Source: a virus. Taken from it: a stretch of 64,000 nucleotides of DNA. Below are positions 27,532 to 32,474 of the stretch, one piece after another. The stretch's first letter is position 1, and the number at the start of each line of letters is the position of its first letter. The DNA is taken from positions 32,001 to 96,000 of IMG/VR virus record IMGVR_UViG_3300032753_001573; one strand, 5' to 3'. The notes beneath the pieces are model-generated. The model saw nothing but the letters and a program-made list of their open reading frames with translations, did not search any database and was not told the DNA's origin. The position numbers were made by a program, and so were the translations under genes.

Positions 27532-27553
27532 TACTACACTCATATACTCAATG

Positions 27554-27583
27554 AGGAAAGGGACACTGTGTCCCTTTCCTTTT
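27554..27583 (+). terminator. rho-independent terminator after groEL
   Basis: aggaaagggaca-ctg-tgtccctttcct-ttt. Confidence 0.85.
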
Positions 27584-27634
27584 AATTTTACACAACCGCT
27601 TGGCAAAGTAGCATTTATTGCGCATAATGCATAT

Positions 27635-30199
27635 ATGAAAACCTGCACAGTAATACTTGAAGACGAATGCAACATTAAACTTGAAGGTCTCGACCTAAAC
27701 ACTAGGCGCGATTGCGTAAAGACGGTTAAGTACTTCTTGCCCCACGCAAGATATAGTGCAGCTTACAAACTTGGTAGATGGGACGGGACAACTAGCTTTT
27801 GTACAATTGGCGGTAGAACCTACCTCAATCTTCTTGACAAGATGCTACCTGTATTGGCAGAAAATGGATATACGGTAGAGCTAGATGACAAGCGACACAC
27901 GTATGATTTTAAATTTGATAAGATAGATGAGAATTACCTAAGCAACATAACTTGGCCTACAGGACACAGAGCAGAAGGTCAACCCATAATACTTCGAGAC
28001 TATCAAGTTCAGGCTATCAACGAGTGCATTGATAATTTGCAGGGACTCAGTATTGCTCCTACTAGTGCGGGCAAATGTCAACCTCTAAGCAGCAAGGTTA
28101 AAGTACCGGGCGGCTGGATAGAAATGGGAGATATATCGGTAGGTGATGTGATAACTATACCAGACGGTAGTACAGCTAGCGTGATTGGAGTGTATGATCC
28201 CGGTATCAAAGATGTATACGAGATAACCTTTGAAGACGGACGTAAGGTCAGATCATGCAGCGATCATATATGGAAGGTTCATAATCATAACCGGACTAAC
28301 AAGTGGAAGCTTTTAAGCTTATCAGAGATAATAGCATATCAAAAAACTAATAATAGACACATATCTGTGCCATTAGCATCGCTAGTTAACGATACTTGTG
28401 TTGCAGATCTACCGATGCATCCGTACCTACTTGGTGTACTACTTGGCGATGGATCATTCGGGCATTGTTTTGGTATCACATCGGCAGATGAATTCATACT
28501 TAATAAAGTATCTTCTCTTCTTGATTCTGATTATAAACTGTCACATATATCAAGATATGATTATAGTATAAAATTTGTATCTGAAGATGTTCACATGAAA
28601 AAGCGATCAGAATGGATGAAACATTACCCGCGTCGTGCAAATGGTACTACACTGCCAAATACAACTTATCAAACCTATCATATGTATAAATCGATAATTA
28701 AAGATCTTGGATTGTCAGGAACTCGCAGCCATACAAAGTTCATACCTCAGATATATCTCAATGCAGGATATGAACAAAGGTTGCAGATGATACAAGGCTT
28801 GTTGGACACAGACGGGTATGTTGATCGTCGAGGTTGTATAAGTTTTACGACTACAAGCCAAAAGTTAGCTGACGATTTTGCATATCTTATCAGAAGCGTT
28901 GGAGGTATTGCTAAACATACTAGAGGCACGAATAGGAAATATCGATATAATAGTGAAATAGTGCCTTGCAAAGATTGTTTCAATGTATCTGTATATCATC
29001 CTACTCCTGCAATATTAGTTACCTTGCCGCGTAAGCTAGAAAGAATAAATTCTCGTAATGTTAAACGACAGCCAGTGTTACATATTGTTGACATACAGAA
29101 AGTATCAACGGAACCGGTGCGTTGCATAATGATTGACCATCCCGACCATCTGTATTTGACAGACAATTTTGTAGTAACACATAACACACTTATTACTGCC
29201 AGCCTTAGCAAGATAGCAGAGAAGTATGGCCGTACTATTGTCATAGTCCCAAATAAAAACCTAGTACAACAGACAGAAGAAGATTATCGAAACATAGGAT
29301 TAGAAGTTGGAGTGCTGTTTGGCGACCGTAAAGAGTATGATAAAAAACATACTATTTGTACATGGCAGAGTCTAAACGTACTAGACAAGAAGAACAAAGA
29401 TGCGCTTGACGATGATCAATTATCAGTGTTCCTTGACGGGCTCATTGCAGTTATTTGCGATGAAGTCCATATGGTAAAGAATGCTAATGTGTTACATACC
29501 TTATTAACTACGACATTTTCTAGCATTCCAATACGTTGGGGATTAACTGGTACCATACCAGAAGAAGAATACAATCAAGTTAGTTTATATAGTGCTATAG
29601 GACCTCTTATTGGTTCTCTCACTGCCAAAGAATTACAAGAAGCTGGGCACCTAGCACAGTGCAATATTAACATACTACAAACTCAAGAAACCGCCGTATA
29701 TAACGATTATCAATCAGAGCTAAAATATCTAGTGACAAACAAAGATCGATTACAGTGGCTAGCCAATAAGGTTACTGAAATATCCAAGACAGGTAATACA
29801 CTGGTTCTGATAGATCGTATCGAAACTGGTGAGATACTAAATGAGATGTTACCCGATGCTACATTTATCAGTGGTAAGATGAAGGCTACTAAACGCAAAG
29901 AACATTACAAGGAAATTAATCTAGAGAACAATTCAGTAATGATTGCTACATATGGTACAACTAGTACCGGTATTAGTATCAATCGAATCTTCAATCTAGT
30001 GTTAGTTGAACCTGGTAAGAGCTTCGTGCGTGTTATACAGAGCATTGGTCGTGGCTTACGCAAAGCGGATGATAAGGATGCAGTTGAAGTTTACGACATA
30101 GCTAGCAAGTGTAAGTTTAGCAATAGACATCTGCTCAAGCGTAAGAAGTTTTATAAAGAAGTATCATATCCGTTTGATCAAGAAAAGATTATGTACTAA
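27635..30199 (+). CDS. uvsW: UvsW-like SF2 helicase containing an intein
   Basis: WDG, LRDYQ, APTSAGK|..|T, DEVH, GLTGT, QSIGRGLR; ATG 27635 follows TTGGCA-N17-CATAAT. Confidence 0.92.
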   Translation: MKTCTVILEDECNIKLEGLDLNTRRDCVKTVKYFLPHARYSAAYKLGRWDGTTSFCTIGGRTYLNLLDKMLPVLAENGYTVELDDKRHTYDFKFDKIDENYLSNITWPTGHRAEGQPIILRDYQVQAINECIDNLQGLSIAPTSAGKCQPLSSKVKVPGGWIEMGDISVGDVITIPDGSTASVIGVYDPGIKDVYEITFEDGRKVRSCSDHIWKVHNHNRTNKWKLLSLSEIIAYQKTNNRHISVPLASLVNDTCVADLPMHPYLLGVLLGDGSFGHCFGITSADEFILNKVSSLLDSDYKLSHISRYDYSIKFVSEDVHMKKRSEWMKHYPRRANGTTLPNTTYQTYHMYKSIIKDLGLSGTRSHTKFIPQIYLNAGYEQRLQMIQGLLDTDGYVDRRGCISFTTTSQKLADDFAYLIRSVGGIAKHTRGTNRKYRYNSEIVPCKDCFNVSVYHPTPAILVTLPRKLERINSRNVKRQPVLHIVDIQKVSTEPVRCIMIDHPDHLYLTDNFVVTHNTLITASLSKIAEKYGRTIVIVPNKNLVQQTEEDYRNIGLEVGVLFGDRKEYDKKHTICTWQSLNVLDKKNKDALDDDQLSVFLDGLIAVICDEVHMVKNANVLHTLLTTTFSSIPIRWGLTGTIPEEEYNQVSLYSAIGPLIGSLTAKELQEAGHLAQCNINILQTQETAVYNDYQSELKYLVTNKDRLQWLANKVTEISKTGNTLVLIDRIETGEILNEMLPDATFISGKMKATKRKEHYKEINLENNSVMIATYGTTSTGISINRIFNLVLVEPGKSFVRVIQSIGRGLRKADDKDAVEVYDIASKCKFSNRHLLKRKKFYKEVSYPFDQEKIMY
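28076..29185 (+). mobile_element. contiguous intein (370 aa) with LAGLIDADG endonuclease
   Basis: CQPL...SDHIW...YLLGVLLGDG...QGLLDTDG...VVTHN|T, inserted in Walker A (GK|T). Confidence 0.95.
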
Positions 30200-30253
30200 A
30201 CCATTGATTATTTGTTAGATATGGCATTGTTGACGGTTAAATAACTGTCAACA

Positions 30254-30754
30254 ATGAAAATACTCACCAACGAAAATCAAGCTTACTCTATCAATCAAAT
30301 ACCAGATGTAATCCAAGACATTAGATATTGTGTTTTGGATTACAGTGATCAATCCAACGTAGATTATTATTTCATGCCTCTTATATTCTTAGAGAGTTTT
30401 AATAGTCCATGTGTTGATCTAAAGATAGGACCATATAACATACAGATGCCTCTTGATTGGAGTGTTGTGATAGGTGACATTAATCTAGGCGATCTAGAAA
30501 TAATGCAACTGATTTACCTCAATGACAAAGACTTTGATGTTTTTGCATTTAATCCTATAAGCGGATATATGCCTAAGTATTTGAAACTTGAAGTTCTCAA
30601 TATATGGCCAGATGTAAAATGGTACTTTCCAAAATTAAAAAATGGGCATTTGCTAGCAGTACCGTTACAAGATGGTGATTCTCCATTATGTGCTCTTTTT
30701 ATTAAAGACATTGGTAAGATTACGGAGAGTTTAGATATAAGAAAGATGTTTTGA
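30254..30754 (+). CDS. hypothetical protein
   Basis: 166-aa ORF after TAAATA. Confidence 0.65.
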   Translation: MKILTNENQAYSINQIPDVIQDIRYCVLDYSDQSNVDYYFMPLIFLESFNSPCVDLKIGPYNIQMPLDWSVVIGDINLGDLEIMQLIYLNDKDFDVFAFNPISGYMPKYLKLEVLNIWPDVKWYFPKLKNGHLLAVPLQDGDSPLCALFIKDIGKITESLDIRKMF

Positions 30755-30830: not shown

Positions 30831-31928
30831 TTACTGGCTACTTATATGAGCCCAGCCATATCCTGGTAGTGTTGTACCAGTGAATGCCCATTCATACTGA
30901 TTTCCGCTCCATGTGTAAACGATTCTATCAGTTATCTTTTGAGCATATGCAGATTGTAGTGCTTCTGCAATTTTAACAGTTGGTACAGATGTATATGATC
31001 CGCCCGAATCTACCACAACACTTCTAACACTATTGCCTGACAATACAGTGTGTGCTGTAGCGCCTGCAGGTGTAAATGTTACCGCTGGAGCTACTTCATA
31101 ACCGCTACCGCCAGCTGTTAGGGTAACATTGCTTACATTCCAATTTAGGTTAGCCTGTGCACCTGTTCCTAGTGCGCTGCCAGTGAAAGATACTGGATTA
31201 GTAGGTAGGGCAGTATAATCGCCGCTGTTAACTACAGTGTTCATGCTGTATACACCAAAGCGCACATCGAACGTTGCTCCTACACCGCTGTTAGTGTTTG
31301 AAGAAGTTGGTGCAAATGGACCAGCTGGCAATGAGTTATTGGTAAACACACCGCTGTTAAGTATGCTGATGCTGGTAATAGCACCGCTTACATTGACGCT
31401 GTTGACTTTTATGGACACATTGGTAGCATATCCTGCACCAGCAAAGTTCAACACGTTGTCTTGTGCATAACCAGAACCCAAGTTGTGTGCAGCGGCATCT
31501 GACCAAGTAACAGCGGTAACGCTAACATTTGCCTGCTTCTTACTGACATATGTGCCGCCTACTACGTGTAGAGTTTCGCCTGGAACATAATTGGCACCAA
31601 GAGCACCTGTTCCGTTAGCAGTAACACCGGCTGATGTTACACTGAGGTTTGCAGTAGCAGTAGCACCTGTTCCTTGTGCACCATATGGAGTAACAGTGAT
31701 GTTACCCTGTCCTGGACCTGTTACTGGTCCATTTACTAGCTGTACTAATCCGCCGCCGGGAACACCAGTACCGTTTACACTAGCCATCTTGTAAAGGTGT
31801 GTGCCTTTCTGAGACACTATATAGCTCTGACGTGCCTGACTATCGCCTGCAGTCCATGCATATCCAACAAGCTGCTGCCCAGCTACGGCAGAATTGCCTA
31901 TGAATAATTTATTAATTGGTCGTCCCAT
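30831..31928 (-). CDS. virion protein (MGRP family) with internal G/S/T/V-rich GxGY repeats
   Basis: Late promoter, SD aaggag, repeat-rich centre. Confidence 0.65.
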   Translation of the reverse strand: MGRPINKLFIGNSAVAGQQLVGYAWTAGDSQARQSYIVSQKGTHLYKMASVNGTGVPGGGLVQLVNGPVTGPGQGNITVTPYGAQGTGATATANLSVTSAGVTANGTGALGANYVPGETLHVVGGTYVSKKQANVSVTAVTWSDAAAHNLGSGYAQDNVLNFAGAGYATNVSIKVNSVNVSGAITSISILNSGVFTNNSLPAGPFAPTSSNTNSGVGATFDVRFGVYSMNTVVNSGDYTALPTNPVSFTGSALGTGAQANLNWNVSNVTLTAGGSGYEVAPAVTFTPAGATAHTVLSGNSVRSVVVDSGGSYTSVPTVKIAEALQSAYAQKITDRIVYTWSGNQYEWAFTGTTLPGYGWAHISSQ

Positions 31929-31945
31929 TTGTTTTTCTCCTTATG

Positions 31946-32006
31946 GTTGCCGTTCTAGGGCTACGAGGTTGGGATCCCCATAACTAATGAACTGCTCTAT
32001 TTATGG
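31946..32006 (-). ncRNA. candidate structured cis-regulatory leader, copy 1
   Basis: 48-nt core 47/48 identical to 32414-32461, lying between late promoter and SD. Confidence 0.6.
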
Positions 32007-32009
32007 TGT

Positions 32010-32399
32010 TCAGTTCTGAACGTACCAGTTATAATCTACATATACGCCGTTAGTTTGATCTCCGTAGTATTGCATGTGCCAGGGGAATTCGCCACCTTTG
32101 AAATCTCTCAGAGTATGATCATTGATTCTGGCTGCATATCCGCTGCTACTGTTTGGATACGTAAAATGTATGTAACCGTCTCCGGGATTGGTATAAACTC
32201 CGTTAGTTAATGTTATAACACCAGATACTTTTGGACTAGTTTCTGACCAGGTTCTAACTAGATATTTGTTACTACCAACCTGTTTGATAATATCATACCA
32301 TCCAACAGTTCCATTAATATTGCCATATATTAGCAGTACGTTGGTATTTGGTGGAGGCGGTGTTGTGCCTATTGCATTTTTGGTAATTGGCCTTCCCAT
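32010..32399 (-). CDS. virion protein (MGRP family), short paralog
   Basis: MGRPITK; shares N- and C-terminal blocks with 30831..31928. Confidence 0.65.
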   Translation of the reverse strand: MGRPITKNAIGTTPPPPNTNVLLIYGNINGTVGWYDIIKQVGSNKYLVRTWSETSPKVSGVITLTNGVYTNPGDGYIHFTYPNSSSGYAARINDHTLRDFKGGEFPWHMQYYGDQTNGVYVDYNWYVQN

Positions 32400-32413
32400 T
32401 TGTTTACTCCTTT

Positions 32414-32474
32414 GTTGCCGTTCTAGGGCTACGAGGTTGGGTTCCCCATAACTAATGAACTACAGTATTTATGG
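32414..32474 (-). ncRNA. candidate structured cis-regulatory leader, copy 2
   Basis: Near-identical to copy 1, with the same spacing to CCATAAATA. Confidence 0.6.

Follow-up and report, generated by a model that had tools for sequence, protein, structure and literature searches.

The RNA most similar to the element described here is the freshwater-2 motif (RF02980), which has the Rfam type Cis-reg. The motif presumably originates from a comparative screen of 224 motifs, and this screen reportedly sought riboswitch-type candidates. To our knowledge, freshwater-2 is catalogued as an orphan from environmental sequences only, with organism, gene function and mechanism all lacking. A full-text literature search for the name returned unrelated papers only, and the name is absent from the main text of PMC5737381. 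Among phages, the T4 genes 32 and 43 have autogenous translational operators, and the gene 32 operator includes a pseudoknot (PMC3014915). In the T4 genes e, soc and I-TevI, a late promoter goes together with a leader RNA structure that governs translation; the promoter lies inside the hairpin, and the late transcripts are made without the inhibitory 5′ arm (PMC3014915). T4 core genes are present in the jumbo phage Atu_ph07, whose gp694 is homologous to the late sigma factor of T4 (PMC6102473).

The window analysed here is a stretch of 64,000 nucleotides (positions 32,001 to 96,000) of the IMG/VR record IMGVR_UViG_3300032753_001573, which is estimated to be 36% complete. Its source is an uncultured jumbo phage of the T4-core kind, similar to Atu_ph07 and Rak2. 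The window contains two copies of an RNA element that are very probably a shortened, two-hairpin form of freshwater-2 and serve as structured cis-acting 5′ leaders. Each copy precedes a gene of one family, which we call MGRP after the first residues of its proteins.

Two leader copies and their match to freshwater-2

A repeat search of the window found a 61-nt direct repeat (31946-32006 and 32414-32474, 93% identity) upstream of two adjacent genes on the minus strand, both encoding proteins that start with MGRPI. Read on the minus strand, both copies contain CCATAAATA, followed by a 4-nt spacer (CTGT in one copy and GAGC in the other) and by a 48-nt block with a single mismatch, an A/U difference in a 7-nt loop. 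This reading agrees with the original prediction, which had described a core identical at 47 of 48 positions, mismatched only in the loop, in front of strongly diverged paralogues; the identity of the two proteins is 30% across a stretch of 94 residues (E 3e-5). The block had also been said to end just before AAGGAG, and it ends near there, 1 nt short at the 129-aa gene and 3 nt short at the 365-aa gene, with linkers that differ between the copies. The CCAUAA abutting the ribosome-binding site, predicted for one copy, was indeed found solely before the 365-aa gene. A 33-nt core pattern with up to three mismatches occurs twice in the window and not once in 100 shuffles, and the leader core is present in exactly two copies in the entire 155.7-kb viral record.

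Copy A belongs to the 129-aa gene (ORF at 32010..32399, on the minus strand like all features of the two leaders), a predicted virion-protein gene included in our 65-sequence alignment of the MGRP family. Upstream is a late-promoter box, CATAAATA, assigned by sequence reading at 32466..32473. The leader itself, which corresponds to the freshwater-2 core without the hairpin P1, was placed at 32417..32460 on the basis of the RF02980 match and the covariation among relatives. It begins with GUUCAUUAG (32460-32452) and continues with the P2 5′ strand (32450-32444), the P2 loop AACCCAA (32443-32437) and the P2 3′ strand (32436-32430), followed by P3, in which GCC (32429-32427) and GGC (32419-32417) enclose the loop CUAGAAC (32426-32420). 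The ribosome-binding site AAGGAG (32407..32412) lies outside the conserved helices. Copy B (31949..31992), placed by its RF02980 match and the repeat, has the same parts shifted by 468 nt, with the P2 loop AUCCCAA at 31975-31969 and the P3 loop CUAGAAC at 31958-31952. Its own box CATAAATA (31998..32005, again by sequence reading) begins 5 nt past the stop codon of the 129-aa gene, and its AAGGAG (31937..31942), with CCAUA before it, leads to the 365-aa ORF of the MGRP family at 30831..31928.

An Rfam search of the entire window at the gathering threshold returned no matches. When the region was scanned by E-value, two full-length matches to RF02980 were found, both spanning model positions 1-84 of 84: copy A at 32397-32472 (45.1 bits, E 1.5e-5) and copy B at 31926-32001 (43.9 bits, E 2.7e-5), 4.8 and 6 bits lower, respectively, than the gathering score of 49.9 bits, which neither copy reaches. 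With sub-gathering scores and without P1, both copies are non-members by Rfam's operational rule. All conserved blocks of RF02980 are present in them, namely UUAUG, the C-rich loop, CGUA, CUAGAAC, AAGGAG and AAACAAAUG. P2 is the 7-bp helix of the family, UAUGNNG/CNNCGUA with a U-G third pair and a C-rich loop, here in the form UAUGGGG/CCUCGUA with the loop A[A/U]CCCAA; P3, as GCC-CUAGAAC-GGC, directly abuts P2; and the element lies 5′ of a gene, with a linker, AAGGAG and AAAACAAAUG downstream, as in freshwater-2. The copies differ from the family in P1, which in the model is a 6-bp helix 5′ of P2. The distance from box to P2 is 14 nt in the copies, with about 9 transcribed nt before P2, and the P1 columns of the model fall on the promoter box and give non-canonical pairs there, which indicates that P1 is missing; the sub-threshold scores follow from this absence. 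Two smaller differences are a P3 of 3 bp instead of the 4 bp of the model, and a 5′ end, GUUC, that is complementary to the P3 loop. The element had first been put forward as an unnamed RNA, with a match to a known Rfam family named as the result that would end its novelty. The search returned RF02980 for both copies, full-length and sub-threshold, and the claim of novelty fell with it.

Several observations point to late promoters upstream of the leaders. The sequence ATAAATA has 39 sites in the record, of which 27 fall in intergenic sequence, a fraction that makes up only 6.5% of the genome, and 33 of the 39 lie within 150 nt upstream of a gene on the same strand. The box of the T4-type late promoter (gp55-dependent, TATAAATA) is thus concentrated in intergenic DNA shortly upstream of genes on the same strand. 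Among relatives of the leader, a TAAATA box is found at most 80 nt upstream of P2 in 168 of 171 cases, compared with 4.7% of random windows from the same loci. Late transcripts of T4 start 6 nt after the box. With this spacing, the predicted transcript starts are G32460 and G31992, and the transcripts of the window would begin with GUUC, where the two copies turn identical; the copies differ in the 4 nt after the box and are identical from about the predicted start. The two repeats are thus very probably untranslated 5′ leaders of late messages with a promoter of their own, and each of them starts a few bases after CATAAATA and ends at a strong ribosome-binding site.

Relatives, covariation and copy identity

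We collected relatives of the leader with two pattern scans of IMG/VR, one anchored on P2 and the P3 loop and the other only on CUAGAAC plus ATGGGNMGNCC, each giving at least 120 matches. Taken together, the matches listed in the two scans contain about 170 distinct true leaders, and every one of these precedes an MGRP gene. They share one layout: a box of the form [G/C/T]ATAAATA or CTAAATA, an optional P1, P2, an abutting P3, a linker, AAGGAG, an A-rich spacer and a start region AUGGG(A)CGUCC, which encodes MGRP. The P3 loop CUAGAAC is invariant across the relatives listed. The box lies 22-36 nt from P2 when a P1 hairpin, highly variable in sequence, is present and 12-16 nt from P2 when it is not; the P1-less form accounts for about 26-35 of 164 distinct relatives. 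In five large records, the ratio of leaders to MGRP genes is 1:1. A scan of 596 Gb of prokaryote genomes gave six matches to the core pattern, of which two are true leaders, both in metagenome bins. One is at 6011-6043 of L236 (NZ_JBBAKG010000003.1, a 148-kb contig in a Haliscomenobacter sp. bin) and the other at 706-737 of L233 (a 1.4-kb contig in a Rhizobium sp. bin). Both are probably phage contigs. The L236 contig is a weak lead to a host, as binning is not evidence of the host.

Covariation was assessed on a MAFFT alignment of 117 non-redundant leaders. P2 and P3 together are paired in 99.0% of cases, and they contain 188 double-change cells, compared with 38.9 ± 12.3 in shuffled alignments; none of 500 shuffles reaches 188, and slid controls give at most 35. 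Two variable pairs of P2 and the 3′ strand of P3 had been left unconstrained in the scan patterns, so the covariation at these positions was not imposed by the way the sequences were collected. The two free P2 pairs covary in the relatives, P3 occurs as 37 distinct stems, and pairing is almost always lost when the 3′ strand of P3 is shifted by 2 nt. Among the P1-less leaders, too, P3 covaries. When RNAalifold was run unguided on the 117-leader alignment, it returned exactly the ten pairs of P2 and P3. The third pair of P2 is U-G in 115 of 117 leaders, where the opposite strand would give a C-A mismatch, which places the structure in RNA of the sense strand. The ribosome-binding site and the start codon lie outside all covarying helices, behind an A-rich spacer. 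These results bear out the predicted structured cis-acting 5′ leader RNA under selection, with many double compensatory changes among the 117 relatives. As the P1-less form shows, the minimal conserved unit consists of P2 and P3.

The fold first proposed for the copies holds in its centre, where the hairpin is the P2 of the family, and fails in its periphery, where the outer helix of GUUC/GAAC plus UA/UA is paired in 35% of relatives. RNAfold on the copies themselves gave a minimum of -14.1 kcal/mol (z -2.3 and -2.1) with GUUC/GAAC and a 9-bp stem with three G-U pairs, as proposed, and with the UA/UA pairs missing; the two additional pairs at the base of the 9-bp stem take up residues that belong to P3 (GCC/GGC) in the family. 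A weak pairing of CCAU with the AUGG at the start codon is seen in copy B only. A new RNA family without a name, distinct from freshwater-2 and closed by the GUUC/GAAC helix, would agree with this minimum-energy fold, which is that of both copies, and with two scores below the Rfam gathering score. We regard it as extremely improbable. The RF02980 match spans all 84 model positions with every conserved block kept, the layout is continuous from P1-bearing to P1-less leaders among the approximately 170 relatives listed, and the outer helix is a minority feature of these relatives. The scores of other copies also overlap with those of the window: P1-bearing copies score 59.5-75.9 bits against RF02980, while P1-less copies score 56.1, 53.1, 48.9, 48.2 and 45.7 bits, with three further P1-less copies giving no report at E ≤ 0.001 (under about 46 bits). 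Together with the family covariation, this spread largely refutes a separate family. Readings of the element as tRNA-like or as a cloverleaf were also set aside, as the consensus consists of two or three independent hairpins.

How the two copies came to be nearly identical is a separate question from their structure. The copies differ at one of 35 core positions and at none of 10 upstream positions, whereas the nearest foreign leaders differ at 3-4 core and 7 upstream positions, with a between-locus median of 7. Such a pattern would result from recent duplication or gene conversion of a patch of 48-61 nt, with no functional meaning of its own, and the 129-aa gene lies between the two direct repeats. 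T4-type phages recombine efficiently, and the duplicated patch could also be a recombination site for gain or loss of the 129-aa gene. A search for relatives of the locus with the 365-aa protein found none, with or without the 129-aa cassette. We consider this account rather unlikely as the full explanation. The strong covariation across relatives shows an element under selection and thus more than the recent gene conversion that a lack of covariation was to indicate. Only one other contig among those listed has two leaders (L020, 453-540 and 1635-1724), which head MGRP genes of 367 and 134 aa, the same long-plus-short pairing as in the window. The P2-P3 cores of its two leaders are 1 nt apart, but their P1 hairpins are unrelated, with differences at 6 of 10 positions, a pattern that fits selection on the core as well as conversion. 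The copy identity can be explained by gene conversion or by adaptation of both copies to a genome-specific factor, and two cases cannot separate them.

MGRP genes and their phage context

The proteins encoded downstream of the leaders range from 109 to 521 aa and have in common an N-terminal domain of about 100 aa, with the pattern MGRP[LI]xK..FG ... [IV]xKQ[RK]Gx[KR]x[FY]. The family profile matches the two window genes at 5e-21 and 2e-9, and in the 365-aa protein it matches both the N-terminal and the C-terminal parts. The 365-aa protein looks like the 129-aa protein with a Gly-rich insert of about 230 aa, made of GxGY repeats, between the N-terminal domain and the C-terminal piece. Pfam gave no match to either gene, and a sequence-profile search of the PDB also gave none. 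PHROGs gave no match to the 129-aa family and only weak ones to the 365-aa gene, the best of which (8e-6, 'head closure Hc2') falls on the Gly-rich block. The AlphaFold2 model of the 129-aa protein is all-beta with a pLDDT of 77.7. Its structure matches in BFVD are uncharacterised phage proteins, two of them from Atu_ph07; A0A2L0V0E8 is matched at E 4.9e-6 with a TM-score of 0.69. Foldseek against the PDB found nothing below E 0.4, and ESM Atlas no usable match. In a wide search with VIA, residues ~21-79 of the model resembled a generic small beta-barrel of the SH3/Tudor/KOW-like type (Z ≤ 4.8), a match that says little about function.

Among cultured phages, tblastn with the 365-aa protein found relatives only in the jumbo phages Atu_ph07 (490 kb) and Sinorhizobium phage Phosso (469 kb), both with 43% identity across 81-82 aa; the E-values are 8e-7 for Atu_ph07 gp498 and 1e-7 for Phosso. 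No cultured phage was matched by the 129-aa protein in tblastn or by the locus in a blastn search with 'distant' settings. The Atu_ph07 homologue (MF403008, 360882-361862) is located six genes after ClpB (CDS 492), which identifies it as gp498, and its computed mass of 35.15 kDa fits the 35.16 kDa of Table S5. In that table, ESI-MS/MS of Atu_ph07 virions detected gp498 with 23 unique peptides and 75.5% coverage in all 13 gel slices (PMC6102473), so gp498 is a well-detected virion protein. By homology, the MGRP genes of the window are predicted to be virion-protein genes.

Atu_ph07 gp498 and Phosso gp429 share with the window genes the homologous MGRP N-terminal domain, and a late-promoter box and a ribosome-binding site upstream. 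In contrast, their leaders are only about 25-30 nt long and unstructured, and freshwater-2 was not found in either genome (best score 21.7 bits, E 0.1). The RNA is thus not needed to express this gene family. The window locus adjoins an intein-bearing helicase gene and a split DnaE-like polymerase, and DNA helicase and DnaE-like polymerase genes are also found near gp429. A 212-aa ORF of the window at 34038-34676 matches phage DNA-polymerase families (phrog_11778, 6e-60), and in Phosso, too, a DnaE-like fragment gene lies near the MGRP gene; the neighbourhood is therefore partly common to both phages.

In the sources available, we did not find the context described here recorded for freshwater-2, that is, a phage-borne leader of late messages linked to MGRP genes. 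With a phage origin, a late leader position and a single virion-protein family, freshwater-2 gains biological context and becomes a testable motif. The gain is modest, as the motif was already known. Relative to the papers that could be searched, the additions made here are the P1-less class, the proteomics link through gp498, the absence of the RNA in cultured relatives and the enrichment of P3-loop complements described below.

Possible roles of the leader

Translational control on a late virion-protein message is the role that we favour. With P2 stacked directly on P3, the element very probably acts in cis, as RNA of the sense strand, and it would tune the translation of the message. With a free ribosome-binding site, the default state would be high expression. 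The CCCR of the P2 loop could pair with UGGG of the invariant AUGGG start, and the P3 loop may be a factor-binding site or may pair with the 5′ end (GUUC in the window copies). Either option for the P3 loop would allow repression, possibly by unassembled MGRP protein. As for the form of this control, we lean tentatively, and somewhat short of an even chance, to a translational operator or a start-codon pseudoknot. A constitutive stabiliser or enhancer is possible though doubtful, and the same can be said of other mechanisms taken together.

The pairing between the P2 loop and the start codon is available in most relatives. CCC is present in 117 of 153 P2 loops, mostly within a CCCR that closes the loop on its 3′ side, and 112 of these 117 can form 4 bp with AUGGGN, counts that should be read in view of the fact that both partners are nearly invariant, hence no covariation signal is possible. 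The UCCCA of copy B can make 5 bp with UGGGA. No compensating change was seen in the P2 loops without CCC, and for covariation between the base before CCC and the third base of codon 2 the counts are too small and clustered to be read.

The invariant P3 loop also has possible partners. Among 26 distinct P1-less leaders, 85% have 4 or more nt in the short 5′ segment that are complementary to CUAGAAC (UCUAG, GUUC or UUCUA), compared with 12.5 ± 6.6% in the shuffled control. When the 5′ segment or the linker is considered, 65.6% of 163 leaders have a complement, compared with 27.4 ± 3.2% after shuffling; both enrichments are confounded by the relatedness of the sequences, and, since CTAG is a palindrome, some 5′ segments may repeat the loop motif instead of complementing it. 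The enrichment suggests that the P3 loop may have a partner in cis. The loop partner and the P3 3′ strand are only 0-2 nt apart, and this geometry suggests that pairing with the 5′ end would exclude P3, a helix that covaries in the P1-less class as well. A subgroup of leaders (L013, L087, L125, L127, L132, L138, L151 and others) has an additional conserved linker stretch, AUCGG[A/G]CUUCU[A/U], which lies downstream of P3 and ahead of the ribosome-binding site and whose UUCU(A) is complementary to AGAA/UAGAA of the P3 loop.

A leader without any regulator could also account for part of these data. Hairpins near the 5′ end might shield a very abundant late message from 5′-end-dependent decay and keep a strong ribosome-binding site unstructured, as a constitutive stabiliser or translation enhancer. 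The exclusion of the ribosome-binding site and start codon from the covarying helices, together with the A-rich spacer, is consistent with this role, as are the position of the hairpins a few nt from the predicted transcript start, the 5′-terminal GUUC that can pair, and the high peptide coverage of the gene product in Atu_ph07 virions. A stabiliser needs stems, however, and not invariant loops, and here CUAGAAC is invariant and CCCR nearly so; the motif is also limited to one gene family, while dozens of other late genes in the genome are without it. We therefore give this role a limited, though real, probability; with its invariant sequence, the P3 loop is better explained as the target of a protein or of a partner in cis than as part of a passive stabiliser. 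For a small-molecule riboswitch, the Cis-reg classification and the highly conserved unpaired nucleotides could be cited. Such a function is very unlikely, as a ligand pocket is hard to accommodate in two or three short hairpins that lack a conserved junction and a conserved internal loop, the genes encode virion proteins and not metabolic or transport functions, and there is neither an expression platform over the ribosome-binding site nor a terminator.

The most specific version of translational control is a feedback operator, in which CCCR and AUGGG would form a pseudoknot and the P3 loop would dock the N-terminal beta-barrel of unassembled MGRP protein or another phage factor. In the P1-less leaders of the window, the 5′-terminal GUUC would compete for the P3 loop and give two alternative conformers. 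That an MGRP protein binds the leader we infer purely from the strict linkage of gene and leader and from the invariant loops, and in this complete form the feedback operator is quite unlikely. If true, a major virion protein would be made in step with its use in assembly, and a translational operator would have been described for the first time for a structural protein of a T4-core phage. The closest precedents of the feedback operator are those of the T4 genes 32 and 43, which are also structured elements of phage 5′ leaders next to the translation start. There the encoded protein represses its own translation, which an MGRP protein might do here. These operators differ from the window leader in serving replication proteins instead of virion proteins, and they have no sequence or structural similarity to it. 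The T4 genes e, soc and I-TevI are comparable in their combination of a late promoter with a leader structure, whereas in the window the structure lies wholly downstream of the promoter and leaves the ribosome-binding site uncovered.

Another potential RNA structure was observed close to the locus. An inverted repeat of 15 nt at 30225-30256 (93% complementary, 2-nt gap) directly follows the intein-bearing helicase gene (27551-30199, with a LAGLIDADG domain). Its 3′ arm ends in ATG, which is the start of a plus-strand gene at 30254-30754 (phrog_11279), and the repeat could form a hairpin that hides this start codon.
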